DNA of 64,000 nt. Source: Massalongia carnosa. Taxonomy: Eukaryota. Shown one piece after another: positions 35,901 through 57,500 of this stretch. A model generated the notes under the pieces. That model worked only from the letters and a program-made list of their open reading frames with translations, searched no databases and was not told where the DNA came from. The stretch lies in assembly GCA_965645245.1 (NCBI GenBank), contig OZ287072.1:1674001-1738000 (forward strand). The letters are read 5' to 3'. How positions within the stretch are numbered: position 1 is the first letter of the stretch; the number at the start of each line of letters is the position of its first letter. The translations under genes and the position numbers were made by a program.

Positions 35901-38900
35901 TCCGAAAATTCGATATAATAGTCCTTCTTCACTTCGTACATCTACTCAAAGACGTGCCGAACAGAAAGCACGCAAAAACATCCCTAGCCTGCAGCTAAAC
36001 GTCTGCGAAATCGAAGCCGCCTCCTTCAACCGACTAAGCCGGAAGAAAAATCACGATATCTTTGTTCCTTCGATGAAAGAAATCGATCGCTTCTTAGGAA
36101 TGGAAGCCTCACCTAGCCCAGTTCCCAGGCTAGCCCTCAATCAAAGTCCCAGCCTAGTTATCAATTCTAGTCCCAGCCCAAGTTATCAACCATTGTCCCC
36201 CCAGTCGAGTCTCAGTGAAAAGGAAATCCATCTAGCCCTATTCAAAATGAATAAAGCCCTAACCTTGCACGCAACCGTTACCCAAGAGGAATTAGACGAA
36301 TATCGGGAAAGAAAAAACGTCGATCCAGCTCCTTTTCTGCCCAAGCAATATCACGACTTCCTAGATGTTTTTTCAAAGAAAAACTCCGACATCCTACCCG
36401 GTCACCGCCCGTACGATCATACAATCAAGTTAAAAGAAGGCACTCAGGCCCCTAGTCAGGCTCTTTATGGAATGAGTCGCAATGAAATCGAGGAGCTTCG
36501 TCGTTATCTAGATGAGAATTTAGCTAAAGGATTTATTAGAGCTAGTCGCTCTCACGCTGCCTCACCAGTAATGTTCGTCAAAAAGCCTGGAGGAGGACTT
36601 CGCTTTTGTGTTGACTATCGAGGCCTAAATGCCATTACGATAAAGAATCGCTATCCGCTACCTCTGATCGCCGAGACACTAAATCGATTGTCTAGAGCCA
36701 AGATTTTCACCAAGCTAGACATCATCGCCGCCTTCAACAGGCTTCGAATAGAAGAAGGAGATGAAGAACTCACCGCATTTCGCACTCGTTTTGGCCTGTT
36801 CGAGTCTCTGGTCCTGCCATTCGGTCTGTGCAACGGACCCGCCTCTTTTCAACATTTTATTAATGACACCCTTCGCGAGTATCTTGACGACTTCTCCACG
36901 GCCTATTTAGATGACATTCTCATCTACAGCAATAATGAGCTAGAACACGAGACACACGTCAAGAAAATACTCTCCAGACTTCGAGACGCTGGTCTGCAGG
37001 CCGATATCACCAAATGCAAATTTCACGTGACCAAAATTGCATACCTAGGGCTGATTGTGACCACAAAGGGAATAAAGATGGACCCAGCCAAAGTGGAAAC
37101 CGTCACGAACTGGCCAATTCCCGTCACTGTGAAAGACGTGCAAAGCTTTTTGGGATTTGCTAACTTTTATAGACGATTCGTGTATGGATTTAGCAACATA
37201 GCCGGGCCCCTAACCAATCTGACTAAAAAGGAAACGGAATTTCGATAGACTGAAAAATGTCAAACCGCTTTCGAAATCTTGAAAAAAGCCTTCACCTCCG
37301 ACGTTATATTGAGACATTTCGATCCGGATCGTCCAATAGTCGTAGAAACCGACGCCTCCGACTATGTGTCGGGTGGCATTCTTTCTCAGTATGATGATAT
37401 GGGAGTGCTTTATCCTGTCGCCTACTTTTCCAGAAAACACAATCCGGCTGAATGCAACTATGAGATATATGACAAAGAATTAATGGCAATTGTTCGATGT
37501 TTCGAAGAATGGAGATCAGAATTGGAAGGATCTGCATTTCCTAATAACGTCATATCTGATCATAAAAACCTCGAATACTTTGCCTCGACTAAACAACTCA
37601 GTCGTCGTCAGGCCAGGTGGAGTGAATTTCTTTCTCGTTTTGAATTCAAGATAGTCTACCGACTAGGAAAAGCGGGAGGAAAACCGGACGCTTTGACTCG
37701 ACGATCAGGAGATCTTCCTAAAGAAGGGGATGATACGGACGATCGAAGGAAATATCAGCATCAAACTATTCTAAAAACCGAAAACCTAGACGAGGAAATC
37801 GCAGAAAGCTATATTTCTTCCATTCTTCTAGCCCCAGCCTTTCTAAATAACGAAGAACCTCACCCCGAAGAACTTCAGCTAGACGAGGGCCCAATCAATC
37901 CAGATGAGGATATTACTACTCAGCTTCTTTGGGAACAAGCCCTCGTACGAGATCAATTCGCACCCAGAATTCTAGAAGCTCTTCGCAATAACGAAAGACA
38001 TCATAATCAAAGTCAGCTAGCAGAATGCGAAGACAGAGAAGGTGTCCTATATTTTCGGAATAAGAAATATGTGCCTCGATCAGACCGCCTACGACTTCGT
38101 ACTATTCAACTTGCCCACGATAGCGTCGCCGGAGGACATCCAGGCCGTTCCAAATGTCACGAATTAGTAAATCGAACATATTGGTGGCCTAGTATGCATC
38201 AGTCCATCAAAAGATTTATTCGGAATTGCCACACCTGCAAAAGATCAAAACTATCTCGTCAGCGTTATCAAAGCTGGCTGCGTCCGCTACCCCCTCCAGA
38301 ACGTAGATGGCGTGATATCTCCATGGATTATATAGGACCACTGACTCCCAGCACCTTTATGGGAATCACCTATCACTATATCTTAGTGTTTATAGACCGT
38401 CTTTCCAAAATGCGACACTTTGTCCCCACAGCAACCATGGAAGTTGAAGAAGCGGCTAATTATTTCTATCAGAATGTCTGGAAATTGCATGGCCTTCCCG
38501 ATGTCCTGGTCTCCGACCGTGGCTCCCAGTTTACCTCCGACTTCTGGGAACTGATGTGCAAAAGGTTGAAAATCGATGCTAAACTTTCCACTGGTTATCA
38601 TACTGAGACTGATAGACAAACCGAAAGAGCTAATGCCACTATAGAGCATTATCTTAGGGCTTATGTCAACTCCATGCAAGATGACTGGGTACAATGGCTT
38701 CCCGGCGCCGAATTCGCTAGCAATAACACCGACTCTTCTAGTATTCTGGCCTCCCCCTTCCTAGCCAACTTGGGACAACATCCTCGTGTGGGATTTGAAC
38801 AGGAGGAACCGTTACCTCAAGACTTGACCGCTCAGGGAAGGGCAAACCTGATTGCAGCCAATCGGTTTGTGGACAAAATACAGGACATCGATACTCATCT

Positions 38901-40150
38901 CCGAGACAAAATGCTAATGGTACAAGAATCTTATGAATCAACCGCAAATGCTAATCGACGTCCCTGCCCCCGCTATTTTGTAGGAGATATGGTATGGCTA
39001 AGCACCAGAAAAATCCAGACCGCCCGCCCAACAGTTAAATTAGACGATCGAAACATCGGTCCCTATCGGGGCAGCAAGGTTATTTCCAACCCACTGATTG
39101 TTCAAATCGAACTTCCCGATACCGTCAAAATTCATCCCGATTTTCACGTCAATCTATTGCAACACGACGCGAATGACCCGCTTCCCGGACAAATACCGGA
39201 GCCTCAAAACCCCGATATTGCTGAAGACGGCCAGCGAGAATGGTATGTAAATAGCATTCTGAATTCCAAACTCGATCGACGTTTCCAACCCCCACTTCTG
39301 AAGTATCTTGTCGGCTGGGAAGGATACGCCTCCACCTGGGAACCATTCAACTATATCACCAACTGTCAGCAAGCCCTAGACAAGTATCATCAAGCTTACC
39401 CCAACGCGGCTGGCCCTCATCTCACCCCGTGCCAAATTCCTCGTTGTCGGTGTCGTGATTAAAATTGCATCGCAGGAGCTCTGCCTTTGAGGGGGGAGCT
39501 ACTGTCATGAAACGGCTTCGAACCAAAAGGATCTCGGCCTTATCCCTAGTTGCCCCCTCTATCCTGTCCCTACCTACCGTACCGCAGGTTCATTGGAGCT
39601 ACCGCGGGTTTATTGGACCTAACGCAGGTTCATTGGACCTAACGCAGGTTCATTGGACCTAACGCAGGTTCATTGGAACTACCGCTGGTTCATTGGACCT
39701 ACCGCGGGTTTATTGGACCTACCGCAGGTTCATTAGACCTACCACAGCTTCATTGGTCAGTGCGCGCTGTTCCAACCTTTCTCGATGCGGTTAGATCGAG
39801 TACGGCTCCGTATCCGATCTTCGAAACCATAATTACCCGGCCCCCATTAGGTTTCTTCGTATTAACTTAGGAAAAGGAGATAAATAGGAGACATCGAAGA
39901 TCAAGGAAACAAAGGGGTAAGGAGGTGAGGAACAGATATAAAAGAAGGGGTCGAGTCTCCAAAGTTCTTGCTCCTTGTCCGACGTCTTAGATAGTCAATC
40001 TAGCCTAGCTGTAGTTATAGACTCAGTCAATTAGAAAGCTTGACCATCCAATCCAGTCCCTTAACAGAGTCCAACCCGACCCGAAAACCCGACTCAAACA
40101 TGACGGGATAGGTAACTAGACAGGTTAAACCTAACCCGTTGCGCGGCGAA
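32937..40150. mobile_element. hAT-like MITE, copy 2 (inverted relative to copy 1), split by Gypsy-2
   Basis: TIR TACGCCGCGCAACGGG / CCCGTTGCGCGGCGAA, 8-bp TSD AGCTTTAT, AACCCG subterminal repeats, 9-bp TTCTGAAAA array at about 33130-33188. Confidence 0.88.
33357..40066 (+). mobile_element. Chromovirus-type Ty3/Gypsy element 2, decayed; LTRs 33357-33840 and 39503-40066
   Basis: TSD GAGTC; gag about 33914-35092 (stop at 34460), pol to 39462 (frameshift near 35770, TAG at 37246); clear homolog of element 1 with a different LTR U3. Confidence 0.97.
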
Positions 40151-40185
40151 AGCTTTATAAACTCAAAGGTACAATAAGTCCTATA

Positions 40186-40356
40186 TGTGACGAAGCAAGA
40201 TAGTGAATAGATTTCTACCATTGCGCCACCTGTCCTTCCCGACCAAAAGGCATAATACTTAGTCCGCAGACCAAGCTCTATTCTACTATAACTAGGACTC
40301 CTGCTATGTTCGCTGTAGGTCCTGCCGTCCGCACCACGCTTGGTCGAACCGTTACA
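40186..40356 (-). mobile_element. Solo 171-bp LTR of the TRIM family
   Basis: Reverse complement of 47635-47805; flanks CTATA/CTATG. Confidence 0.88.
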
Positions 40357-40400
40357 CTATGATTATCCATAAGCATCAATTTCCACTGCTTTGTAGGCCC

Positions 40401-40466
40401 TGTAACGGTTCGACCATGCGTGGTACGGACGGCAGGACCTACAGCGAATATAGCAAGAGTCCCAGT
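40401..40466 (+). mobile_element. Partial TRIM-family LTR cut by a LINE 5' end
   Basis: TGTAACGGTTCGACC...CCCAGT matches the first 66 nt of the 47635 LTR. Confidence 0.8.
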
Positions 40467-42706
40467 CAGCACCTATCGAAAAATAAGTACCGCAACTTTG
40501 ATACTCTATAACTTTAATAGTCAATTGAGCCTCTATTTCTCAGTCATTTGAGCTCCTCCAGAGCAAAAACGCTCTCAGATTGGTTGTAGGAGAGCTCTAG
40601 CAAAGCTCGAGCAGAGTTTTTCTACAAGTCGTACGCGACCGACGTGATAAAGCGCGCTTAAGAAGTTGAAAAAACAACAAATACCAATAACATCACCAAA
40701 AATCGCTCTTATTTCTTGTTTTCTTCTGTTCTGTTGTCGCAGAACTTTCAATTATTACTATAAGAATTATCTACAAAAAATATCTACTCTCGCGGTACTG
40801 TACAACAACTGTCGCGACGTTAAAGTCTTCGGAAGTTCATTCCTCATTTAAGGTTACGGGAACTTCCGCAAGCACAAATTGTCACAGCATATTTCACGTA
40901 TAATTTTTGCACATTCCATTTTTGGCTTTATCGATCTTCGTTGAACGGCCGGTCAACAGATCACTGAAAAGAAGGGGAAAAACGTCTGGAATAGGAGGAT
41001 TATACCAAAGGTCCTGTTTCAGATTAATCAGAATAGGAAGTCTCGTATTGTATTACATTGCAACTTTATTGAAAAAAAGCAAAGAAAACTTTCATTATTT
41101 TCACCTATTGTAGTGTCTGGTAAAGGGTTAAATCAGACTTACTGCCTTAGCGAGGAAAGGTCTATTTTAACCCGATTAGGATTTATTTGACGAGTGATAG
41201 TCAAATAAATAGGGATAGGAAAGAAAGAGTAATTTGACCAGTAAACAGGTGTAAATTCTAGTACGTCCGGGGAACGTCAGAATAAATTATTTGGTGGCGA
41301 TAAAAGGGATATTGCAACGGCAAAAAACACTATGCTCAATCGAAGGTTTAACCCGATGGGTCATAGACCAAATCAATTGATACCCTCAACTCCACCCCCA
41401 GGCCCCCTTCCGAAACATCTATGGGTCCCCCCGACTACGCCCCCGGGCCACCCCCCAACAGACTCCCCCGCGCCATCTTCGGTAGCGATAATTGGGAGCA
41501 CCCCCCTAACCGTAGAGTCCACGGAGGCCATGGACCAACGGCGAGGATTCTCGTCCGGACCGTCTACACCCATCCCAAAAGCGAAATCTTTTGTCGCGCC
41601 ATCTGGTGAATTCAGTACTAATCGGCCCATGCCATAATTGAATTCTGATATTCGACTTAGTCCACCAATTAAACGCAACAAAAGACGAACATTTGAAGAA
41701 CATTCGATTGAAAGTTAAGAAGTCATCAATCGAACAAAATAGATTCAACTATTGTATACGGCAAAAAATGCATTATTGGAGTCATTCGTTCTAGATTAAA
41801 ACCCTGATACGGCTATTGTCATTGATCACGTCAATTCTTTACTGGCAAAGAAATCGATCAAGCCTATACCAACGTTAGAAATTATTGATTGGAAATTGAA
41901 TAGGGTGCTAGAACAAACTAGCAAAATTCCAGAAAAAAAGAGACAATAGGTGCGACCTATACAGACAAGTTCGAATGGAAATTCGAATTTGAATAAAAAC
42001 GTCAACCCAACAATTCGGAGCGGAACCGCCGGGGTCCCGGGGCCGCAGGTCAATGACACAGCTAGAACATGGAGCCAAATGCTTGGAAAAGCGACTGTCA
42101 ATTCCGAAAATTGGACTACCGTTCCTCGATCCAAAAAAACAAACAACAACAACATCAACAATTCGAATGCGAACAAATTCGATAATACTGACGATTTCAA
42201 GGCGATCAAATCTCGACGGTTGATAATTATACCGAAAGCTCAAATCGGCGATATCAACTAACTGTTACTTCGAAACCAAATCATTTCGCTTTTTAAAGAC
42301 GCGAAGTTGACTATCGTTGTTAACACGGTCGAAAAGTCCAAAACGGGTCAAAAATTCGTTCTGACTACTAGCCCTGAAAACACTGCTGAAGATTTATTGA
42401 CCAATAAATCAATATGGGAGCATTTATTTGACCCACGAATAGTTCGAAAGGACGAATCGTGGTTTAAAGTCGTCGCAAACGGCGTAAATATTGCAATATT
42501 TGATGAAAACATGCAATATTTGCAAGACGAAATTCAAAAGTTCAATTCGAACATGCAATTATGCGATGTTCCCAGATGGCTAGCACGTGATCGTCATAAT
42601 CAGATCAAATCATCCGTTGTTTTGACCTTCAACGATCGAAATATGGCCTTGAACGCGTTAAAAGGAGTCAATATCGCGGTTCAACATTATGACACGGAAA
42701 TATTTA

Positions 42707-44837
42707 ACGTAATTTACCCTCATTCGGGTCAGCCCCCCATTCGGGTCAGCCACCCAATCGGGTCAGCCCCCCATTCGGATCAACCACCCAATCGGGTCAC
42801 CCACCAAAAATAAAACCTTCGCCCTACACCAAAGATGTCACGGTTCTACTCGGCACTACTTCGGTAGACTGGAGCGGAACAAGCCACAAGCCGAAGTCAC
42901 GGGATCGCGTGTGCGCGCTAGACTCATCGCGGCATTCACGGTTTCCATAGCTGGTCAATGCTCGAACCTTCTAGATCCTTCCACGAGTCGGTCGAGGGCT
43001 AGGGGCCGCTGGACTATATAGGAGCGAGATTTGTCTTTCAATTGATCTTTTCTTCTTCATCTTGATTGTATTCGTTTCTAGTGTCCCTATGACTAGTCTC
43101 TAGGTAGATCATAACAAAAGAAAATATTACATTACTTCCACCATCCCCAAAACTAACTAAAAATATCTCTATGCATCTGCATTTCCTTCCATACGGCCTT
43201 TGCGAACTTTACTTTACTATTTAAAGCATGGTACCGTTCCTTTTGTTTGGCCAATGCTTCTTCCTTCCTCTGTTTTTCCTCCGCAATCGCCTGCCCTTCA
43301 CCTACAGTCAGCACCCTCGCTTTAACACCCCCCTTTCTGGATGTTTTTTGACGTCCCTGAGCCTTTTTATCAATCAGTTCTTGATTGGTGTGTCTTAGAA
43401 TAACCCTATCAGCGACGGTATTCAAAGCAGTTGTTTTAAGCAACTCAACATGCGCGCGAAGAGATGGAGTTATACAGGATATAAGGGCATCGCTGACTTC
43501 CTGGATTCGCTGCTCCGTTTGGGGGGCATCGGTGACGGTGTTTGGATAGGTAGGAGGTGTAATAGGCCTAGGCAACTTGCCTAGAACATGCACTGGATTA
43601 AATGGGATGAGGCCTGCCTCTCGCCATGCACTTATGATGTTAGTAGTAGTAATGGCCTGTTTCCTAGCCACCTGAATAAGGCGTAAAAAATCTAGCTTAG
43701 AAATAGTCATAGCCCCGTAACGTGATTGGCTGGAAACGAGTTGTTTATAGGCCTTAGATAAAGGGCCAAAAACACCGACATCCAGGGGCTGCAATAAATG
43801 AGTTGAATGTGGTGGCAAACAAAGGGGTATGATTTTCTCTTGGGCACCAAACTCCAGAAAAGGAATGGAGACGTGACTCTCATGGCCATCTACAATTAGC
43901 ATCCTATACATGCCTCGTTCAGGTTTTGTATGCTTATTGAACACCGTTCGCAACCAATGAAGGCCTATCTCCGCATCCGTCCAACCATTGGGACTGACCC
44001 GAACGGTATCTGCCTTCGTCTCCATGGCATCATACCATGCAGGTTGAACTTAGGCACCTTGGAAAATGATATAAGCCGGAAGAACTGTTCCGCGGGATGA
44101 TATGCACTCAATTAGAGAAACCCAGTCCCTATTTCCCGGATGCACATTGAATGGTATTGTTGTGCCTTTGATTATGACCATCGAACTGTCTGCGATGCCC
44201 ATAGGAAAGCCTTTTTCATCCATGTTGTATGTATCTTCATCTGAAATCCCATATTTGACCAAGGTAGTCGCGTACAATTCGAACCAATCACGCAAAATTT
44301 CGGGACTACCAGCGTCCTTTCTGGATTGATCGAGGTTTCTATTGTATTTGATTTTGAAATCGGGATGCCTTTTCAGGAACTTTTGATACCAATGACGACC
44401 CAACGGATTTTTGTCCCCTTTGGCGTTCAGGAGACTTCTGGCCAAATGTTGGATACGAGGCGGCCAACCCCATGAGGTCATCCGCTCTATCCAATCAATC
44501 AGAGCCTGTTCTACGTGGACGGATAGCCTTTGGGCGGCTTGATGATAGTGTTTTGCGGCCCGCCTGCCTTTGAGCCGGGCCTGTAAAGTCGACTGAGGAA
44601 CTCCGTAAAGGCGCGCTATTTCCAGCTGCGAAATGCCCGGATTTTTGGCTAATTCTTCGATAGCCAACTGTAATCTAGTAGCAGAGTCAATTGTAGGCAT
44701 ATTAATGGACATTTTATCTACAATTAATAGATAACTATATGGTGGTGGTGGATAAACAGGATAGAATTTTTTTCGGTCGCTAGATTTTAATGGGTTGACC
44801 CGAATGGGGGGCTGACCCAAATGAGGGTAAATTACGT
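42707..44837 (-). mobile_element. Fot1/pogo-type DNA transposon C; transposase 44712-43153 with one in-frame TAA at 44050-44052
   Basis: TIR ACGTAATTTACCCTCATTYGGGTCAGCCCCCCATTCGGGTCA at both ends, TA TSD; TYNMDEKG, LIVDGHESH, LQPLDVGVF; empty site visible at about 50131-50145. Confidence 0.95.
42836..43116 (+). mobile_element. Solo LTR (281 bp) in transposon C
   Basis: TGTCAC...ATAACA with TSD AAAGA; TATATA near 43015. Confidence 0.88.
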
Positions 44838-45047
44838 TACCTCCGTTCGTCCAAAAACACAATGTATTAATTGTCAAAAATTTAGACACAAGCATTAGCA
44901 ATGCAAAAGTCAAGCGAAATGCAGCATATGTGCGCAAAATCATGAAACACGCAATCATAAATGCACAACATGTAAATAAAAAATTGCTTGTTCCCACGTC
45001 GTCGTCAAATGCACGAAAAGAACGATAGGAACAACAAGAACCACCGC

Positions 45048-46101
45048 ACACCTATCGAAACACAAGTACCGTAACTTTTGATACTCTATAACTTTAACAG
45101 TCAATTGAGCCTCTATTTCTCAGTCATTTGAGCTCCTCCAGAGCAAAAACGCTCCCAGATTGAGTGTAGGAGAGCTCTAGCAAAGCTCCAGCAGAGTTTT
45201 TCTGCTGGTCGCACGCGACCGACGTGATAAAGCGCGCTCTAGAAGTTGGAAATAACAACAAATACCGACAACATCAGCAAAATTCGCTCTTTTTTCTTGT
45301 TTTCTTCTGTTCTGTTGTCGCATGACCTTTAATTATTACTATAAGAATTATCTACAAAAAATATCTACTCTCGCGGTACTGTACAACAACTGTCGCGACG
45401 TCAAAGTCTTCTAAAGTTCATTCCTCATTTAAGGTTACGGGAACTTCCGCAAGCACAAATTTTCACAGCATATTTCACGTATAATTTTTGCACATTCCAT
45501 TTTCGGCTTTATCGATCTTCGTTGAACGGCCGGTCAACAGATCACTGAAAAGAAGGGGAAAAACGTCGGGAATAGGATTATAACAAAGGTCCTGTTTCAG
45601 ATTAATCAGAATAGGAAGTCTCGTATTGTCTTACATTGCAATAAAATCTATCTTTATTGAAAAAAAGTATAAAAAAAAACTTTTATTATTTTCACATATT
45701 GTAGTGTCTGGTAAAGGGTTAAAATCAGACTTACTGCCTTAGCGAGGAACGGTCTATTTTAACCCGATTAGTATTTATTTGACGAGTGATAGTCAAATAA
45801 ATAGGGATAGGAAAGAAAGAGTCATTTGACCTGTAAACAGGTGTAAATTCTATTCTGACTAGTACGTCCGGGGAAAGTCAGAATAAATTATTTGGTGGCG
45901 ATAAAAGGGATATTGCAAAGGCAAAAACATTATGCTCAATCGAAGGTTTAACCCGATAGGTCATAGACCAAATCGATTGATACCAACAACTCCTCCCCCA
46001 GGCCCCCCTCCACAACATCTATGTGTCCCCCCGAGTACACCCCCGGGCCCCCCCCGAATCGACTCCCCAGCGCCATCTTCGGTAGCGATAATTGGGAGCA
46101 C
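45048..46101 (+). mobile_element. Tad-like LINE copy 2: leader and ORF1 start
   Basis: Colinear with 40469-41501; ORF1 ATG 45932; breaks at an LTR-like sequence. Confidence 0.88.
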
Positions 46102-46340
46102 AGTCGAAAGCCGATTAGTCAGTTGGCTGGTAGCACTACCTGTACTCGATCCCGTGACCCTATGTAAATGCATGGCTAGTGAAGGAGCCTAATAGGCTAG
46201 CTCCGAGTAAGCTGCGGGAGCTAAATCACTAGCTTAGAAGATTAGGGCATCTCAACTGTATATAGAAGGCTTCGCCACCTAGCTAGAGAATCAAGCAATC
46301 TACTACCTATGCTTCGTTCACCTTTGTGCTTTTGATACCG
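46102..46340 (+). mobile_element. Probable truncated LTR
   Basis: Abrupt start AGTCGAAAG (possible decayed TGTC), TATATAGAA near 46258; no right end or TSD. Confidence 0.4.
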
Positions 46341-46344
46341 TCAC

Positions 46345-46809
46345 CTTACCGGCCTGCTCATGTTGCTAGCACAGAAAAACTCCAGAACATGTAATCATGT
46401 TCTGCAAACTTATTGACAATAGAGAACAGATGTTTCGCGCCGCCGGAATCAGTGACTTTCAGCTGCTGCCCAAATCATCAAAAACTCTGAAGATACTAAC
46501 TGCTTGGCTAATGAAAACAGGCTTATTGAATCAATTCTCACTAGCATCAACATTATTGTAAAATCTACAATAGTTGAACCTTTCTTTCTATCTTTCTTCT
46601 CTTTTCACAAGGCATTACAGTTCCTACATGTCTTTTGCAATGCGTCTCCCGCCCGACGTGGACCCGTAGTCACATCGGACGGGTATCAAGGGACATGGTT
46701 TTTACACCTGTGAAAGGTTTTCCATGTAACATAACTTAGATAGCTTGGCCTGCATGGGCCGGCCTACGGCCGGTGTTATATCGGAGTATGAATATATCAT
46801 CATTATCAT
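46345..46809 (+). mobile_element. 5'-truncated 3' end of a second LINE family
   Basis: ACSCC*HRKTPEHVIMFC..TAWLMKTGLLNQFSLA stop resembles the Tad-clade ORF2 CCHC C-terminus; 3' UTR ends in ATC-like repeats. Confidence 0.7.
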
Positions 46810-47235
46810 AGAAACATATCCTAATATAGTTTAGTGTCATAACCTTAGGTTTAATACACTTAATGAATAAATACAAATATATCCTAAAATAGTTTAGTGT
46901 CATAAACTTAGGTTGAATACACTTAATTAAGAAAATTAATAAAAAAAACTAGCTTATGGAACAACAAATATGACGAATGGAACGAAGACGAAAAACAAAC
47001 AAATAAACGAAATCCTAGTCAGCTTTTTCGCGTTCTGCACTGAGTTTCGGACATAGATTATAAAACTGATGAATTCAAACAATTAAATAACTTTATAAAA
47101 GCATAGAAGTCGTCATGTAAAATCGAATTTCAAATCGAAAAGTCATTTTTTAAATTTTTAATTTATTAATTAAGTGTGTTCAACCTAAGGTTATTACACT
47201 AAACTATTTTAGGATATGTTTCCATAATATAAATG
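46810..47235. mobile_element. Cluster of short LINE fragments: two tandem + strand 3' tails, an ORF2 piece and a - strand 3' tail
   Basis: Match the 3' UTR/tail at 60806-60890 and ORF2 sequence at about 62120-62310. Confidence 0.75.
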
Positions 47236-47805
47236 TATAACGGTCCGACCAAACGTGGTGCGGACGGCAGGACCTACAGCGAACATAGTAGGAATCCCAG
47301 TTATAGTAGAATAGAGCTTGGTCTGCGGACTAAGTATTGTGCCTTTTGGTCGGGAAGGACAGGTGGCGCAATGGTAGAAATCTATTCACTATATCGCTTC
47401 GTCACAGAATACTTAGTCATCAATCGGTGTACTAGTCGTGAGTTCGATTCTGACCTGAGTTCCTCGCTTTTTCGCCTTGCTTCGACGGACTGAAGCTAGG
47501 ACGAAACGGGAAAGCGTTGGATAAAAACTCTCTAAGTCGGATCGGCGAGGGCCGTACGCTAAGAAGAGCCCATTCTTCGGGGTAAACTATTACTGGAAGC
47601 GGCTAGGGGCTAGCCGCAGCTATACGGGCGGTAGTGTAACGGTCCGACCAAGCGTGGTGCGGACGGCAGGACCTACAGCTAACATAGCAGGAGTCCCAGT
47701 TATAGTAGAATAGAGCTTGGTCTGCGGACTAAGTATTGTGTCTTTTGGTCGGGAAGGACAGGTGGCGCAATAGTAGAAATCTATTCACTATCTCGCTTCG
47801 TCACA
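47236..47805 (+). mobile_element. TRIM-like miniature LTR retroelement: two 171-bp LTRs and a 228-bp non-coding interior
   Basis: Direct repeats 47236-47406 and 47635-47805 (TG/TA..CA), purine-rich GGGCGGTAG before the 3' LTR; flanks AAATG/GAATA are an imperfect TSD. Confidence 0.85.
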
Positions 47806-47841
47806 GAATAAATTAAACCTTCATAACCCATCTATGTTAGA

Positions 47842-50800
47842 GTCAGCACCTATCGAAACACAAGTACCGCAACTTTTGATACTCTATAACTTTAACAGTC
47901 AATTGAGACTCTATTTCTCAGTCATTTGAGCTCCTCCAGAGCAAAAACGCTCTCAGAGTGAGTGCAGGAGAGCTCTAGCAAAGCTCCAGCAGAGTTTTTC
48001 TGCTGGTCGCACGCGACCGACGTGATAAAGCGCGCTCTAGAAGTTGAAAAAACAACAAATACCAACAACATCACCAAAAATCTCTCTTTTTTCTTGTTTT
48101 CATCTGTTCTGTTGTCGCAGAACTTTCAATTATTACTATAAGAATTATCTACAAAAAAAATATCTACTCTCGCGGTACTGTACAACAACTGTCGCGACGT
48201 CAAAGTCTTCTGAAGTTCATTCCTCATTTAAGGTTACGGGAACTTCCGCAAGCACAAATCTTCACAGCATATTTCACGTATAATTGCACATTCTATTTTT
48301 GGCTTTATCGCTCTTCGTTGAACGGCCGGTCAACAGATCACTGAAAAAAATGGGAAAAACGTCTGGAATAGGATTATACCAAAGGTCCTGTTTCAGATTA
48401 ATCAGAATAGGAAGTCTCGTATTGTCTTACATTGCAATAAAATCTATCTTTATTGAAAAAAAAGCAAGAAAAAACATTTATTGTTTTCACCTATTGTAGT
48501 GTCTGGTAGAGGGTTAAATCAGACTTACTGCCTTAGCGAGGAACGGTCTATTTTAACCCGATTAGGATTTATTTGACGCGTTATAGTCAAATAAATATGG
48601 ATAGGAAAGAAAGAGTTACTTGACCAGTAAACAGGTGTAAATTCTATTCTGACTAGTACGTCCGGGGAACGTCAGAATAAATTATTTGGTGGAGATAAAA
48701 GGGATATTGCAAAGGCAAAAAACACTATGCTTAATTGAAGGTTTAACCTGATGGGTCATAGACCAAATCGATTGATACCCTCAACTCCACCCCCAGGCCC
48801 CCCTCCGAAAAATCTATGGGTCCCCCCGACTACGCCCCCGGGCCCCCCCCCCAATCGACTTCCCCGCGCTATCTTCGGTAGCAATAATTGGGAGCACCCC
48901 CCTAACCGTAGAGTCCACGGAGGCCATGGACCAAACGCCAGGATTTTCGTCCGGACCGTCCACACCCACCCCAAAAGCGAAATCTTATGTCGCGCCATCT
49001 GGTGAATCCAGTACTAATCTGCCCATGCCATCATTGAATTCTGATATTCGACTGAGTCTACCAATTATACGCAACAAAAAAGGAACATTGACGAAAATTC
49101 GATTGAAAGTCAAGAAGTCATCAATCGATCAAAATCGATTCAACTATTGAATACGGCAAAAAATGCATTATTGGAGTCATTCGTTCTAGATCAAAACCCC
49201 GAAACGGCTATTGTCATTGATCGCGTCAATTCTCTGCTGGCAAAGAAATCGATCAATCCTAAAGCAACGTTAGAAATGATTGATTGAAAATTGAATAAGG
49301 TTCTAGAACAAACTAGCAAAATTCCAGAAGCAAATAGACAATCGGAGCGACCTATACAGACAAGTTCAAATGGAAATTCAAATGGAAATTCGAATTTGAA
49401 TAAAATCGTCAACCCAACAATTCGGAGCAGAACCGCCGGGGTCCCGAGGCCGCCGCATGTCAATGAAACAACTAGAACATGGAGCCAAATGCTCGGAAAA
49501 GCGAGTATCAATTCCGAAAATTGGACTACCGTTCCTCGATCCAAAAAAAACAAACAAAAACAACATCAACAATTCGAATGCGAACAAATTCGATAATACT
49601 GAAGATTTCAAGGCGATCGAATCTCGACGGTTGATAATCATACCGAAAGCTCAAATTGGCGATATCGACTCACTGTTGCTTCTAAACCAAATCAATTCGC
49701 TTTTTAAAGACGCGAAGTTGACTATCGTTGTTAACACGGTCGAAAAGTCCAAAACGGGTCAAAAAATACTTCTAGCTACTAGTCCTGAAAACAGTGCTGA
49801 AGATTTGTTGGACAATAAATCAATATAGGAGCATTTATTTGACCCACGAATAGTTCGAAAGGACGAATCGTGGTTCGAAGTCGTCGCACACGATGTAAAT
49901 ATTGCAATATTTGATGAAAACATTGCAATATTTGATGAAAACATGCAATATTTGCAAGACGAAATTCAAAAGTTCAATTCGAATATGCAATTATGCGATG
50001 TTCCCAGATGGCTAGCAAGTGATCATCATAACAAGATCAAATCATCCGTTGTCTTAACATTCAACGATCAAAATATGGTCTTGAACACGTTAAAAGGTGT
50101 CAATATCGCGGGCCAACATTGTGACACGGAAATATTTACCTCCGTTCGTCCAAACACAAAATGCATTAATTGTCATAAATTTGGACACAAGCATTATCAA
50201 TGCAAAAGTCAAGCGAAATGCAGCATATGTGCGCAAAATCATGAAACACGCAATCATGAATGCAGAACATGCAAATGAAAAATTGCATGTGCACACGTTG
50301 TCGTGAAATGCACGAATTGCAACAAGAATCATCAATCCAATGACGAAAATTGTGAAATGGTTATATCGTTAAATATTCGAAAATCGACTGACGAACTAGC
50401 CGCTGTGTAATGGCAGGACAGCATTCGTTGACAAACATCGAAAATATACAAAATGTTAAATTTATTCAACATAATTGTGCAAAGTCAACGAATGCAATGA
50501 TTTCGTGTTTGGAATATGATTTATCGAATCAAATTGATATTGTTTTGTTTCAGGAACTATAGACACGAGATGAAAAAACTATATCACATCCGTCATTTAC
50601 ATGTATTATGCCAAAAATAGCGACTTATCGCTCGAGAGTAGCTATATTTGTCACAAAATGCAATCCCAAACTGCAATGCACGCCTAGAACTGATCTTATT
50701 GACGATTCCGATATGCAAATTATGGAAATTACAATTGATGAAGTTCGAAAAGTGCAGATATTCAATATATATAACGAATAAAGTCAAAGTGATCGAGAAA

Positions 50801-52305
50801 CATACTCGATCGATCGACTTTTAATCAATTATCAACCTACATCAACTGATAAATCCGTCATATGTGGAGATTTCAATGTACATCATAACTGGTGGAATTC
50901 GAAAATCCAACAAGTAATTAGATCAGAAAATCTAGTCAAATAATTGAAATTAAACAAGTGTAGTTTAATAAACACACCTGATTTATGCATATACTACGCC
51001 CATTCTGGAAGTTCTTCATCTGTTATTGATTTAACATTTGCAAATTCTAAAATCGAAAATGCGGTTACAAATTAGACAATCGATGAAAACGCAGTCACAG
51101 GTTCAGATCATGAAGTCATCCGATTTGAACTAATCGCATCTTTCAAAAATTTGACGTCACATGCTACTGCATAATCGAATAAATGTAATTGCAATAAAGC
51201 CGATTGGAATAAATTCGCGAAGTTTCTAGACGAAAATTCAATCATCTACGAATCACAAGTTCAAAGTTTATTGAATAATAATCAATTAGACGAATCAGCG
51301 ATATATTTGCAAAACATTATCAAAAACACGGCTGAAATTTTTATTCCGAAAACAAAAATATGTCCAAAATCGAAAAATTGGTGGTCGCAAGATTTAACCG
51401 AACTTCGAAAAACCATGTGCAGACATCGTCGAGAATAGAAGAATTATCCGTCCGATTTTAATCATCGGACGTTTAAACATAGTCGAATCGAGTATTTTCA
51501 TGCAATTCGAAAAGCAAAACAACAAACCTGGTTGACTTTTCTAGAAAATGCAGCAAATAAAGATGTATTTACCGCGTATAAATACACTAAACCGCGCATA
51601 TTCGAAAAAATACCCCCGATTCTACATGAAAACAAGCTAAATATTTAGTTTGATGACAAATGAGATGCATTTGTTTCAGCAATGTACACAAAAAACCCAT
51701 TTATAGACTATAATGTCGAAGATTTGTCAAATTAAGACAGCGAAAATGACGATAATTGGCCAGATTTGACCGAAAACGAGTTGAAAAATGCGATTAATTT
51801 ATTTAATCCGAAGAAAGCATGTGGACCTGATGCAATCAATTTTACAATTGTTCAAAAATCGTTTCAATCGTTGAAAAACGTGTTTTTCATGATTTATTCG
51901 AAATTCATTCGAATCGGTTATCACCCGTTATGCTGGCGGACAGGACTCGGTGCAGTTCTGAAAAACCCTAATAAATCAGATTATTCCCTAACAAAATCAT
52001 ATCGAATTATCACATTACTAAATTGTCTTGGTAAAATTGCTTGAGAAAATCGTTGCAAATCGACTAGCCTACTTCGGCAAAAATTCTAATTTTCTAGATA
52101 TCGAACAGATGGGCGGACGCAAAAATCATTCTGCAATTGACGCAGTAATGAACGTTGTTCATGATATTGAAATTGCAAATCGAAATAAAAACGTCTTATC
52201 ATGTTTATTACTCGATGTCAAAGACGCATTTGTCTTTGTCGATTAATCAACTGCTAAATGTCATGAAAAAGTTGAAATTATCTCGCATAGTAATTCAATG
52301 GGTCA
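47842..52305 (+). mobile_element. Tad-like LINE copy 3: leader, ORF1 (48727-50410) and ORF2 from 50410 (APE endonuclease and RT start), many stops
   Basis: ORF1 with three zinc knuckles; ORF2 IQHNCAKS, FQE, CGDFN, SVIDLTF, GSDH, KACGPDAI, YRIITLLNCLGK, LLDVK. Confidence 0.93.
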
Positions 52306-52351
52306 GTTACAAATTAGTCAATCGATGAAAACGCAGTCACAGGTTCAGATC

Positions 52352-54508
52352 GCAAGTACCCTATGATTTGTTATTCTATAACTCCTATAGTCAATTTATC
52401 CCATCTTTCTCAGTCATTTGAGCTTCTCTAGACCAAAAACGCACTCAAATTGAGTGTGGGAGAGCTTCCGCAAAGCTCTTGCAGAGTTTTCAACTGGTAG
52501 TATGCGACCGACGCCAAAATAGCCAACAAAGTACCGAGACACCGCACTGAAGCAGCAACAGTACCCTCGATTTTGATATTCTGAAACTTTCGGATTAGAT
52601 TCTACCCATCTTTCTCATTCATTTGAGCCCCTCTTTAGCAAAAACGCACCAAAATAGGGTACGGTAGAGCTCTTCCAAGGCTCCTGCTGAGTTTTTCTGC
52701 TGGTTGCATCCATCCAACTCACTCCAAAAACGCCCCCTAAAATTTAAAAAATACAAAAAACATCTACAATTCTTTCAAAAATCGCTCAATTTTCGATATC
52801 TCTTCGATTTTATTGTCGAATAGACCTCAGTTATTATCACCGAAATCATCAAGAAATAACACTCACTGTCGCGTTACTTTACACCTGTTGTCGTCCCGTC
52901 ATAATTTTTTAAGTTTATTTCATATTTAAGGTTTCTGGTACCTGCGCAAGCAGTATATTTCTTGCATTTTCAGTGCATATTTCGTGCATAAGTTTATTTT
53001 GGGTTTTCTTGTTCATCATCGAACGGCCAGACTAACAATCTACTTTCGGACATCTATTTCTCAACATTGGACGGCCCGCTGAAAGGAAGGGGAAAAAGAC
53101 TAGAATAGGGTTACACCAAAGGCCCTGTTTCAGGCTAATCAGAATAGGAGTTCCCTATTTTCTATATCGTACTTGATTTTTATTTTTGATTAAAAAACAC
53201 TAAAATTATCCTATTTGATCAAACTTTTCATTATTTTCAACTACCGTAGTGTCTGGTAAAGGGTTAAATCAGACTTACTGCCTAAGCGAGGAACGGTCTA
53301 CTTTAACCCGATAAGAATTTATATGACTTGTTATTGTCAATTAAATAGGGGTAGGAAAGAAAGAGTTATTTTGACCAATAAATCGGTATAATATCTATTC
53401 TGCCTAGTACGTCTGGGGAACGTCAGAATAAACTATTTGGTGGTGATAAAAGGGATATAGAAAAGGCATGTTTAACCAGGTAATCAACCCGGTAGCACAC
53501 TCGGCACTCCCTAGAACTATGTCAAGGGCTGGGTTGGGAATTGAACTAATGTTCCTATGAATTGGATTGGATGATCAAGATGTCCTTATTAATGAGGCTA
53601 TAGCTAGGAGGTGGTTTGCTATACAAGACGTCGGCCGAGGAGTCAACTATCTACAGGATATGTCCTCTTTTTATACCTGAGCCAGCCCCTTCTCATGTTT
53701 TACCTTCACCCTAGATGAGAGATTTTGGTGATAGTGGCGGCGATAAGGTAGAGCGATAAGTGGGCCCGTAGATGTGATCGTTCTAGCGATAAGAGGGTAT
53801 AGTGGAGTGAGGAGATTGGTGGAGTAGAGTAAGGGGTTTATTCAGACTCATACCGAGGATGAATCTGAATAGGCTTTCAGGTAGCTTTTACCTCGATCGC
53901 CGCTTGACGGTTCGGTAATCATTAGGTTTTAACTCAAACTTTATTTCATGACAAACTAGGCGATTTTTGGCGAGACCACCCCCCCAAGGCCCCCTACCTA
54001 GAAATTTATCGGCCCGCCCAAGTACCCCCCCAGGTCCCCCCCAAAAAGACTCCCCCGCGCTATCTTCAGTAGCAATGATAGAAAGCTCACCCCTATCCGA
54101 CGAGTTTATAGAAGCTATGGACCAGTCAGGGAAATTTTCGTCCGCACCCTCCACAACGACCCCTAAAGCGAAAGTCTTCATTGCTTCATCTAGTGATTTT
54201 ACTACCAATTTACCTATGCTATCATTACATTCGAATATTAGACTAAGCCCGCCAATAAAACGCAATAAAGACGATCATTTGACGAGTATTCGATTGAAAG
54301 TCAAGAAGTCAACAATCGAACGAAATTAATTCAACTACTAAATACGGCTAAAAACGCACTATTAGAGTCATTCGTACTAGATCAAAATCCCGAAACGGCT
54401 ATTGTCATCGATAATATAAATTCTCTACTGACAAAGAAATCAATCAAGCCTAAAGCAACGCTGGAAATTATTGATTGGAATTTGAATAGGGTGCTGGAAC
54501 AAACTAGC
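52352..54508 (+). mobile_element. Divergent subfamily LINE copy 4: leader with duplicated 5' unit and ORF1 from 53468
   Basis: Homologous leader; ORF1 MFNQVINPVAHSALPRT-RRFLARPPPQGP is in frame once the solo LTR is removed; cut by Gypsy-3. Confidence 0.85.
53520..53953 (-). mobile_element. Solo LTR related to Gypsy-3
   Basis: TGTCAAGG...CATGACA with TSD AACTA; R-U5 part similar to 54509-54665. Confidence 0.9.
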
Positions 54509-57500
54509 TGTCAAGGACTGGGCAGGGGATTGAACTAATATTCCTAGGAATTGGATTGGGTGATCAAGATATCTTTATTAATAAGGCTATAGCTAGTTGA
54601 TAGATTGCTATACAAGACGTCGGATAAGGAGTCAACTATCTAATTAACTTGTCCTTCCTTTTATATTTGTCTCGAACCCCTTTGCCTGAAGATTCGATCA
54701 GTGTTTATCTCCCCCTATTAGGAGACGTACGGCACGAAGATTTGACGAGGTTTTTGACGATAAAAGGTGGAGATGAGGTTCTCCTGTCGTTGATAAGCTT
54801 TGATGGTGATGGTACAGCTTTGACCTGAAGCCGTTGAGAGGGTCTAAACTCGATTTAGTTAATGAGATTCTGACTAAGCTGAATAGAGGAACGGGAGCTT
54901 AGTCAGATTCATCTGCGGGATTGATTCTGGATCGGGTTGGTTCGATTTCACGACAGTAGCTCCCTTTTCAAGAGCTGAGCTCCTGCGAAGCAGTTTTATT
55001 CATGACAGCGACATCGAGGAATGGAACAGGGGGTGAGATGTGGGCCGGATGCACCAGAATAGGCTTCGTAGAATTCGTCCAGAGCTTGTTGACAGTTGGT
55101 TAGTAGGTGAAATGGCTCCCAGGTAGGGGTATGTCCTTCCCAGTTGACGAAATACTTGAGAAGCGGAGGTTGATAACGTCTGTCCAGTTTCGAGTTCAGA
55201 ATGCTGTTGACATACCATTCTCGCTGTCCATCTTCGGCTATTATTGGGTCGCGAAGCTCGGGAATTTGTCCTGGGAGGGGGTCGTCTGCGTCGTGTTGTA
55301 GCAGATTTACATGAAAGACCGGATGAATTTTAACCGTGTCGGGGAGTTCCAGTTGAACAACAAGAGGGTTGGCGAACACCTTACAGACTCGGTAAGGACC
55401 GACATTTCGATCGTACAGTTTGGCTGCCGGACGGGCTGTCTGGATATTTCGGGTGTTTAGCCATACTATGTCTCCTACAAGATAACGAGGACAGGGACGG
55501 CGGTTCTCATTGGAGGAAGATTCGTATGAGGCCTGCGCGATCAACATCTCTTCTCGTAGGTGAGTGTCTACGTCTCGCATCTTGTCTACGAATCGATTGG
55601 CGGCGATCAGGTTAGCGATTCCCTGGGCGGTCAGGTCTTGCGGAAGGGGCTCTTTGGGTTCGAATCCTACCCTGGGGTGTTGTCCATAATTAGCCAGGAA
55701 GGGAGAGGCGAGAATGCTAGAGGAGTCGGTGTTATTGCTGGAGAATTCGGCACCGGGTAAGTACTGGGCCCAGTCATCTTGCACGTAATTGACGTATGCC
55801 CGAAAATAATACTCCATGGTTGCGTGAGCCCTCTCGGTTTGGCCATCTGTCTCGGGATTAAAACGGGTTGATAGCCTAGCATCAATTCTAAGCCGTTTAC
55901 ATATGATGTCCCAGAAATCGGAGGTGAATTGGGTGCCTGGATCCGAAATCAAGGCGTCTGGGAGACCGTGTAATTTCCATACATTTTGGTAGAAGGAGTT
56001 AACAGCCTCTTCTACCTCCATGGAGGTGGTGGGGACGAAATGTCGCATCTTAGAAAGGCGATCGATGAAGACGAGGATATAACGATAGGTTATACCCATA
56101 AAGGTGCTCGGAGGCAGTAGACCTACGTAGTCTATGGAAACGTCACGCCATCGACGTTCGGGTGGGGACATAGGGCGTAGCCATCCTTGGTATTGTTGGC
56201 GGGATAGTTTGGATCGTCTACAGGTGTGACAGTTACGAATGAATCGTTTGACGGTTTGATGCATACTGGGCCACCAGTATGATCGATTCATTAGTTCGTA
56301 GCATTTGGAACGACCGGGATGGCCACCTGCTACGCTGTCGTGTGCCTGTTGAATGAGACGGAGACGGAGCCGATCCGAATTGGGTACGTATCGACGGTTT
56401 CGAAAATAAAGAATCCCTTCTTTATCTTCACATTCGGCTAGCTGAATGCCGTTATGATATCTGATGTTATTGCGAAGCATGTCTAGAACTTTCAGAGAGA
56501 ATTGATCCTGTTCCAGAGCTTGTTCCTATAACAGCTGAGTTGGGACGTCGGTCGGGTCTTGGCCAGGATTGGTTTGGTCGGCAGGCTGATCCAGCTGTGG
56601 TTCAGGTTCAATGAACTCGTGATCATGTTCAACGGACTCGGGATCCTGTTCGATGAACGCGGGGGCTAGGATAATCGTGGATAAGAAACTTTTCGCCACT
56701 TCGTCGTCCAGGTTATGAGTTTTCAGGATGGTTTGATGCTGATATTTATGTCTTTCATCAGTTTCATTCCCCTCTTTAGGGAGGTCTCCTGAGCGACGAG
56801 TCAGTGCATCTGGTTTTCCACCAGCTTTTCCGGGTCGATAGACTATTTTAAAGTCAAATCGGGATAAGAATTCGGACCAGCGAGCTTGACGACAACTGAG
56901 TTGTTTGGTTGAAGCGAAGTATTCCAAATTCTTATGATCTGAGATAACGCTGATGGGGTGAGCAGAACCTTCTAATTCCGGTCTCCATTCTTCGAAGCAT
57001 CGGACGATGGCCATGAGTTCCTTGTCATAGATCTCATAATTGCATTCGGCCATGTTGTGTTTCTTGGAGAAGTATGCGATGTGGCGAAGCACGTTCTCGT
57101 TGTCATACTGAGAAAGGATACCACCAGAGACGTAGTCCGAAGTATCGGTTTCCACGATGATAGGACGATCGGGATCGAAATGTATCAGTATTAGTTCCGA
57201 GGTGAAAGCTTTTTTTAGAGTTTCGAACGCCTGTTGACATTTGTCAGTCTATTGAAAGCTGACCTCCTTTTTGGTTAGATTCGTCAGTCGGCCGGCTATC
57301 TTACTAAAGCCGTATACGAATCGTCTATAGAAGTTAGCAAATCCCAGAAAGCTTTGTACATCTTTCATATTGATCAGTATTGGCCAATGAGTTACTGTTT
57401 CGATTTTAGCGGGGTCTATTTTGATTCCCTCGGTGGTTACGATTAGTCCGAGATAGGCAACTTCTGTGACATGAAATTTGCATTTGGTGATGTCTACTTG

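Follow-up and report, generated by a model that had tools for sequence, protein, structure and literature searches.

What keeps a short non-coding segment nearly invariant immediately upstream of the first open reading frame (ORF1) of a long interspersed nuclear element (LINE), while the rest of the leader diverges between subfamilies? This question is raised by a stretch of 64,000 nucleotides (nt) of Massalongia carnosa DNA (assembly GCA_965645245.1, contig OZ287072.1, positions 1,674,001 to 1,738,000 of the forward strand), hereafter the window, whose own numbering is used throughout and in which a conserved block of about 230 nt precedes ORF1 in several copies of one LINE family. Judged from the letters of the DNA, the conservation of this block is more than chance. 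Our leading interpretation, held tentatively and with slightly less than even confidence, is that the block is a selectively maintained cis-acting RNA module at the ORF1-proximal end of the LINE 5' untranslated region (UTR), and the best label for it is a new conserved LINE 5' UTR module without an assigned RNA family.

An initial annotation of the window had described the block as a conserved, covarying structured RNA domain that recurs four times. Repeat finding, blastn with positions 40480-41700 as query against the window, and nhmmer with a profile of the four block copies agree on exactly four copies, all on the + strand and at the positions given in that annotation. The nhmmer E-values of these copies range from 1e-80 to 1e-86, all other matches in the window having E >= 0.37. 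Copy 1 spans 41096-41331, copy 2 45687-45931, copy 3 48482-48726 and copy 4, which represents a divergent subfamily, 53232-53466, with an ATG following at 53467. The smaller features quoted in the annotation were likewise all placed correctly (CCTATT at 41104-09 and GATAGG at 41214-19, CTACC at 53241-45 and GGTAG at 53350-54, and the third hairpin at 48645-48679). It was also right to call the block a non-coding module adjoining the ORF1 AUG, as the block ends about 10 nt 5' of the first ATG of ORF1 and its purine-rich conserved tail reaches up to that ATG (41332 in copy 1, 48727 in copy 3). In other copies of the family, seen in contigs of three sequencing runs, about 20 extra bases lie between the block tail and the ORF1 ATG (at 48717 of copy 3), and the distance from block to start codon is thus not fixed in the family. 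We rejected an upstream ORF or other coding reading of the block because the stop-to-stop frames differ among the copies, and, by eye, an intron inside it, as new copies would no longer contain a segment that is spliced out.

The block is, as far as the remaining domains tell, part of the 5' UTR of a decayed LINE with an apurinic/apyrimidinic endonuclease (APE) and a reverse transcriptase (RT), since remnants of both lie downstream in copy 3, where the ORF2 remnants at 50782-52243 (+ strand) match Pfam Exo_endo_phos_2 (50782-50940, E 8e-07) and RVT_1 (52022-52243, E 8.4e-07). For 7 of the 12 translated pieces, all ORF1 pieces included, no Pfam family was found; ORF1 carries Cys/His knuckles near 50200-50278. 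A search with one ORF1 piece, which provides a lead only, returned hypothetical proteins of Ascomycota and Basidiomycota as well as arthropod PRE_C2HC and DUF4780 clusters. The host of the LINE is probably fungal. The leaders are about 850 nt long, with the block at the 3' end in each of the four copies, and alignments place their common 5' ends at about 40470, 45050 and 47848 for copies 1 to 3 and at both 52353 and 52558 for copy 4. With its 5' boundary set by alignments at the common 5' end and its last base directly in front of the ORF1 ATG, the leader of copy 1 occupies 40470-41331, and those of copies 2, 3 and 4 occupy 45050-45931, 47848-48726 and 52558-53466, respectively, all on the + strand, the last being counted from the downstream unit of a tandem duplicate. 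The block thus starts 626 nt inside the element. In copy 1 the first ATG comes after 862 nt and has an A at position -3; it opens the decayed start of ORF1 (41332-41637, + strand).

Copies 1-3 are about 92% identical throughout (blastn) and are therefore uninformative on selection. Copy 4, which by its divergence is a member of a separate subfamily, allows the comparison. Here the block retains 88% identity to the majority of copies 1-3 (210 of 238 columns), against 68% for the whole leader over 904 columns (blastn), about 61% for the rest of the leader by subtraction and 73.5% for the start of ORF1 (blastn; 66-86% per 50 nt against copy 3), and the claim that the block is far better conserved in copy 4 than the remaining leader was thereby confirmed. 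Per 50 nt the block of copy 4 is 96, 84, 80 and 92% identical to that of copy 3, whereas the leader outside a short conserved island reaches 44-78%. The differences are spread unevenly, with 2 changes in the 68 columns of the region of the first hairpin (H1), 17 in the 81 columns of the middle, which holds the second hairpin (H2) and a linker, and 4 in the 65 columns of the third hairpin (H3) and the purine-rich tail. Two more islands of the leader are kept in copy 4, namely the 5'-terminal ~140 nt and a shorter one at 40985-41038 (+ strand; 80-85% identical in copy 4); between the shorter island and the block runs an A-rich linker of low conservation. A single recombination event accounts less well for several conserved islands than selection does.

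Within the block we found three inverted repeats whose arms of 14, 11 and 9 nt are 86, 100 and 100% complementary, respectively, corresponding to the three hairpins of the initial annotation. H1 is a 49-nt hairpin with the arms GGGTTAAATCAGAC and GTCTATTTTAACCC (41125-41173 in copy 1, 48511-48559 in copy 3), H2 an 11-bp perfect palindrome (41181-41210 and 48567-48596), and H3 has a 9-bp perfect stem and, in copy 3 (48645-48679), an AGUA/GAA internal loop. Copy 1 has lost 9 nt of the 5' arm of H3, as had been noted, leaving the 3' arm at 41267-41275. The + strand of copy 2 folds with a z-score of -3.47 and that of copy 3 with -3.26, none of 200 shuffles being as good in either case, and along the leader of copy 3 the block core and the 5'-terminal region (47901-48020) stand out as the two most structured windows, with z-scores of -3.25 and -4.24, respectively. 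In H2 of copy 4, 4 of the 8 loop positions are changed against 2 of the 22 stem positions, a retention of the arms that favours a real hairpin or palindrome. One of these two stem changes creates the only ATG in the leader of copy 4 and thus probably reflects decay after insertion. Structure of the block is plausible on these grounds.

The third hairpin resembles a known RNA module. The sarcin-ricin loop, the bulged-G (loop E) module of large-subunit ribosomal RNA (rRNA), is built in the order stem, AGUA, closing C-G, apical loop, G-GAA and stem. H3 has the same order of elements, AGUA standing opposite GAA between Watson-Crick pairs in copies 2 and 3 with the apical loop CCGGGG, so that the loop-E-type motif pointed out in the annotation is present in these two copies. 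It differs from the sarcin-ricin loop in that the apical loop has six bases instead of a GAGA tetraloop and in that Rfam gives no large-subunit rRNA match, and the likeness is one of sequence, from which an S-turn is not readable. Copy 4 keeps the AGUA/GAA motif with one stem mismatch; copy 1 is without the 5' arm. Searching both strands of the window for the AGUA/GAA hairpin signature returned the block copies only, against 0.23 occurrences per shuffled window, a figure to be read with the signature having been noticed after the fact and being a short motif, not a fold.

The statement that the block belongs to no known family was upheld by Rfam 15. Over 20 kb, at E <= 1, the sole match was to MIR7526, below threshold and located outside the block, and a search of 361 nt at E <= 10 gave no internal ribosome entry site (IRES), ribozyme, tRNA, rRNA or snRNA family; matches to rliB (17.6 bits) and mir-5583 (16.9 bits) lie far below their gathering scores and were put down to chance. 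By eye, the wording around GGTAGAG..ATCAGACTT recalls a tRNA D arm and anticodon stem, but a tRNA or short interspersed nuclear element (SINE) origin was rejected with Rfam negative and ARAGORN finding 0 tRNA genes in 38000-58000. Nor did relatives of the block appear elsewhere: a 25-nt H1 pattern had 0 matches in metagenome, viral and prokaryote contigs, and an ORF1 protein query against metagenome contigs gave 237 pattern matches, none of them confirmed. A 23-nt H3 pattern matched a Clostridia metagenome-assembled genome and an IMG/VR contig, which carry the same (pro)phage-like sequence with unrelated flanks; with about 0.5 chance matches of this pattern expected in the prokaryote collection by our estimate, we treated this as chance. 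Literature on 5' UTR structure of fungal LINEs yielded nothing on point, in a search too thin to call the block unpublished.

The leader as a whole bears on the way in which such an element would be translated. On the + strand the leaders of copies 1-4 contain 0, 1, 2 and 1 ATG, respectively, where 8.6-9.8 are expected from dinucleotide-preserving shuffles (8.6 for copy 1), and counts as low were reached by none of 2000 shuffles for copies 1, 2 and 4 and by 1 of 2000 for copy 3. CAT, the reverse-strand ATG, which is equally exposed to CpA/TpG bias, occurs 9-17 times (9 in copy 1), about as expected. Both ATGs in the leader of copy 3 are private, as sequencing run X1 reads G at 48351 (nearly all of 38 contigs) and at 48598 (33 of 33). 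The part preceding the block has 0 ATG against 5.6 expected in copy 1 (0 of 1000 shuffles as low) and 0 against 6.4 in copy 4 (1 of 1000), and the block of copy 1 has 0 against 3.1 (17 of 1000). The ORF1 controls are unremarkable, with 19 against 24.0 in copy 1 (100 of 1000) and 33 against 36.2 in copy 3 (228 of 1000); an insertion in copy 4 has 11 against 8.3 (931 of 1000). The pre-block leaders are about 60% identical, yet both are ATG-free, which argues that this state has been kept by selection in both lineages. On a plain reading, the ATG-free leader would be the signature of a 5' UTR that is scanned from its 5' end and is part of the sense mRNA.

This depletion bears directly on an analogy drawn in the initial annotation. 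In HCV-type (hepatitis C virus) IRESs, domain IIId carries a loop E motif under a GGG apical loop. H3, with its AGUA/GAA internal loop and G-rich apical loop, resembles this arrangement, and an IRES-type element would recruit the 40S subunit internally through this hairpin. The block lies immediately upstream of the AUG, the motif sits under the CCGGGG loop in copies 2 and 3, and mouse LINE-1 is reported to have an IRES in front of its ORF1 (PMC3592465). The analogy was nevertheless not supported, because the ~850-nt leader, including the 626 nt before the block, is ATG-free in two subfamilies, which is not the tolerance of upstream AUGs that internal entry implies. Selection against AUGs 200-850 nt upstream would be pointless with an IRES before ORF1, and this lowered our estimate of the IRES reading. 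Moreover, no IRES family of Rfam was matched even at E <= 10 on the 361 nt, no surrounding domain III architecture was found, and in copy 4 the H3 stem has a mismatch and the minimum-energy fold does without H3. We regard an IRES as improbable.

A self-cleaving ribozyme, be it HDV-like (hepatitis delta virus), hammerhead, twister or of a new class, that processes the LINE RNA was the other catalytic or translational role that had been envisaged. There are precedents, as R2 and L1Tc have been described to carry HDV-like ribozymes at their 5' ends and Schistosoma LINEs to contain variants of twister (PMC3774820, PMC4035085, PMC8501958). Like the block, the ribozymes of R2 and L1Tc are structured RNAs in the 5' region of a LINE (PMC3774820, PMC4035085), but they reside at the very 5' end and define it, whereas the block is internal, starting 626 nt into the element, and none of the ribozyme models in Rfam matches it. 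Cleavage at the block would remove the 626 nt of leader, yet every copy carries its leader. By eye, there is no C directly after H2 at the position of the HDV-like J4/2 catalytic residue, and no CUGANGA hammerhead core on either strand. Support for this proposal was thus not obtained, and of the roles considered we rate self-cleavage as exceedingly improbable. Both the IRES and the ribozyme reading are disfavoured; assembly of a ribonucleoprotein or control of translation, likewise envisaged in the annotation, stays a candidate role.

A number of observations weigh against an RNA module under selection. The closing helix CCTATT/GATAGG is part of the consensus fold but is missing from the minimum-energy folds of copies 2 and 3. 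The + strand of copy 4 folds no better than chance (z -1.23, 21 of 200 shuffles as good), its block core window reaches a z-score of only -1.4, and H3, as mentioned, is absent from its minimum-energy fold. The stems consist almost entirely of Watson-Crick pairs, as palindromes do, and folding of the minus strand is on a par with that of the plus strand (copy 3, z -4.15, 0 of 200 shuffles as good), so that the data fit palindromic DNA sites too. The loops of H1 are as invariant as its stems, which structure alone does not explain. Covariation gives no help either. The compensatory change claimed for the closing helix exists, one pair being U-A in the other copies and C-G in copy 4 with the neighbouring pair going from U-G to C-G, but in the same helix a C>A change breaks a pair. 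RNAalifold predicts 63 pairs with 1 compensatory change and assigns a covariation term of +1.5 kcal/mol, which is unfavourable, that is, a penalty. A 55-pair structure that includes H3 has 1 pair with both partners changed and 9 unpaired cells out of 212; these values are reached by 131 of 500 shuffles, and sliding the partners by +1 column yields 2 such pairs. Overall copy 4 breaks six predicted pairs and compensates one. Hence the four copies hold no significant covariation, in a test that with four sequences, three of them near-identical, has almost no power, and the word "covarying" is unsupported rather than refuted.

Further points of the same kind come from conservation and from other sequence data. 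The two best sub-blocks, with 97% and 94% identity in copy 4, are about as alike as decay leaves copies within one subfamily (copy 1 against copy 3, 92-96%), and the subfamily masters may have been identical there, which could reflect either a recent exchange or constraint of great strength. The leader and ORF1 also occur in full, at about 88-96% identity, in three other closely related organisms, where pieces of the block (88-96%) are no better kept than its flanks (90-95.5%) among the variants listed; equal identity of block and flank is expected if these differences are neutral decay. The data on relatives consist of contig pieces and summed variants from sequencing runs, which are unlinked and hence unusable for a covariation test. 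One run alone yielded 2746 contig pieces, a number that suggests leader copies in the thousands. Finally, 11 sequencing runs from 9 studies carry parts of the stretch, and no RNA run is among them.

Much of this evidence would equally suit an element acting at the DNA level, with the block forming part of an internal promoter or enhancer of the LINE and the palindromes and repeated motifs serving as sites for host transcription factors. Candidate sites are GGGTTAAA/TTTAACCC, the palindrome ATTTATTTGAC and the repeated words TCAGAATA and ATAGGA. Near-perfect Watson-Crick palindromes that fold equally well on both strands, H1 loops and stems of equal invariance, H2 arms that are kept around a variable spacer as in a dimeric site, and the lack of covariation all agree with this, and internal promoter activity is ascribed to most characterised LINE 5' UTRs in a review (PMC2881922). 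The resemblances of the motifs, however, were seen by eye, the block abuts the start codon, and it lies 626-860 nt from the 5' end of the element, while the conserved, duplicated 5'-terminal ~140 nt would, by analogy with other LINEs, be the more usual place for a promoter. We consider the DNA-level explanation unlikely, though a serious competitor. We set aside a pairing of GGGTTAAA with TTTAACC at the start of ORF1, as TTTAAC is in frame (Phe-Asn) in copies 1-4 and its conservation is explicable by coding.

The near-identity of the best sub-blocks brings in an explanation without any special function, in which copy 4 owes its likeness to a recent sharing of the segment among LINE subfamilies, brought about by recombination or template switching. 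The two sub-blocks that look no older than copies of one subfamily are what such an exchange would leave, and replacement of the promoter or 5' UTR is described as frequent in LINEs (PMC2881922). A high-medium-high pattern of identity within 230 nt together with two further islands would, on the other hand, need several breakpoints, and the 5' edge of the block coincides with the hairpin and linker structure. Recombination as the sole cause seems quite unlikely to us.

With a selectively maintained RNA module as the preferred reading, the following sequence of events can be proposed, in which transcription start, scanning, action at the RNA level and protein binding are all inferred. The element is a high-copy and probably fungal LINE that encodes an APE endonuclease and an RT and has Cys/His knuckles in its ORF1; its full-length RNA would start near the first base of the element. 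A 43S complex would then scan the whole ATG-free leader of ~850 nt to the first AUG, the start of ORF1. The block would act as RNA through its two nearly invariant sub-blocks, the first comprising H1 and its 5' flank and the second H3, with the sarcin-ricin-like AGUA/GAA internal loop, and the purine-rich tail; in the looser middle between them H2 retains its arms around a variable loop. Its most likely job would be to bind a protein beside the start codon, either the element's own ORF1p or a host factor, and the bound protein may tune initiation at ORF1, nucleate the LINE ribonucleoprotein (RNP) in cis, or both. A more specific proposal, which we find doubtful although possible, is that the block represents a structured RNA domain, new and specific to its family, in the mRNAs of fungal LINEs, in which the sarcin-ricin-like hairpin and the invariant 49-nt hairpin beside the start codon form a binding platform that couples scanning-dependent initiation at ORF1 to RNP assembly in cis, or in which an rRNA-module mimic engages a translation factor.

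Such a role would have partial parallels among LINEs. The 5' UTR of human LINE-1, of about 900 nt, is likewise a long leader before ORF1, and its translation is cap dependent and proceeds by scanning according to a review (PMC2881922, citing Dmitriev et al. 2007); from the ATG-free leader described here, scanning would depend on the 5' end in the same way. The two are unrelated in sequence, the present host is probably fungal, and a discrete block of ~230 nt by the AUG is set apart here by its conservation. Mouse LINE-1 has been reported to contain IRES regions upstream of ORF1 and ORF2 (PMC3592465), which resemble the block in being RNA directly upstream of a LINE ORF1 with a proposed role in translation and binding of host proteins; depletion of ATG over the whole leader argues against internal entry here, and there is no similarity in sequence or in Rfam.

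The 5' UTRs of LINEs change rapidly in evolution; discrete RNA modules with a function have been defined there in very few cases, and most rarely outside animals. A block that is near-invariant while the leaders around it diverged by ~40% between subfamilies would mark a place where expression of the element is controlled, and together with the 850-nt ATG-free leader it offers a clean, testable system for the scanning of a long structured leader. For the present, it amounts to a conserved segment in the leader of a dead repeat family, which is of no more than moderate interest.

At the other end of the leader, the conserved 5'-terminal part (40470-40620, + strand), which corresponds to the most structured part of the copy 3 leader, is by analogy the likeliest seat of an internal promoter. 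The first ~140-200 nt of the leader are tandemly duplicated in copy 4 (52353-52490 and 52558-52695, at a spacing of 205 nt). These duplicated units are reminiscent of the promoter monomers of mouse LINE-1; the upstream unit contains 2 ATG and the downstream unit opens the ATG-free stretch.

The surroundings of the block are a transposon nest with a chromovirus pol, a pogo/Tc5-type DDE transposon and hairpin repeats resembling miniature inverted-repeat transposable elements (MITEs). Four 5' parts of the same LINE family stand head to tail in one orientation over 40470-54650, each ending where the next starts, as if full-length copies had been inserted into older ones to form a nest; LINE 3' ends were not found in the window. 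The pogo/Tc5-type transposon (DDE_1, HTH_psq, HTH_Tnp_Tc5; 42813-45051, - strand) lies inside ORF1 of copy 1, a remnant of which resumes at 44837-45017. In copy 4 an unrelated insertion of ~465 nt (53476-53940) directly follows the ORF1 ATG, before the body of ORF1, and a 147-nt part of it (53520-53666) recurs 1 kb downstream at 54509-54655 with 84% identity.

A hairpin repeat, its 66-nt arms complementary to 92%, immediately precedes LINE copy 1 at 40291-40466 and is found again upstream of copy 3 at 47235-47411 and 47634-47810. It is this repeat that gives the sub-threshold Rfam match to MIR7526, a microRNA (miRNA) family of Lotus japonicus (65.9 bits against a gathering score of 110), but a MITE-like element is a more probable identity for it than a miRNA gene. 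Eight 20-nt units form a tandem array (39560-39779) just downstream of the chromovirus pol ORF (37399-39462), and two tandem 63-nt units with 89% identity (46808-46933) are located in the unassigned DNA between LINE copies 2 and 3.

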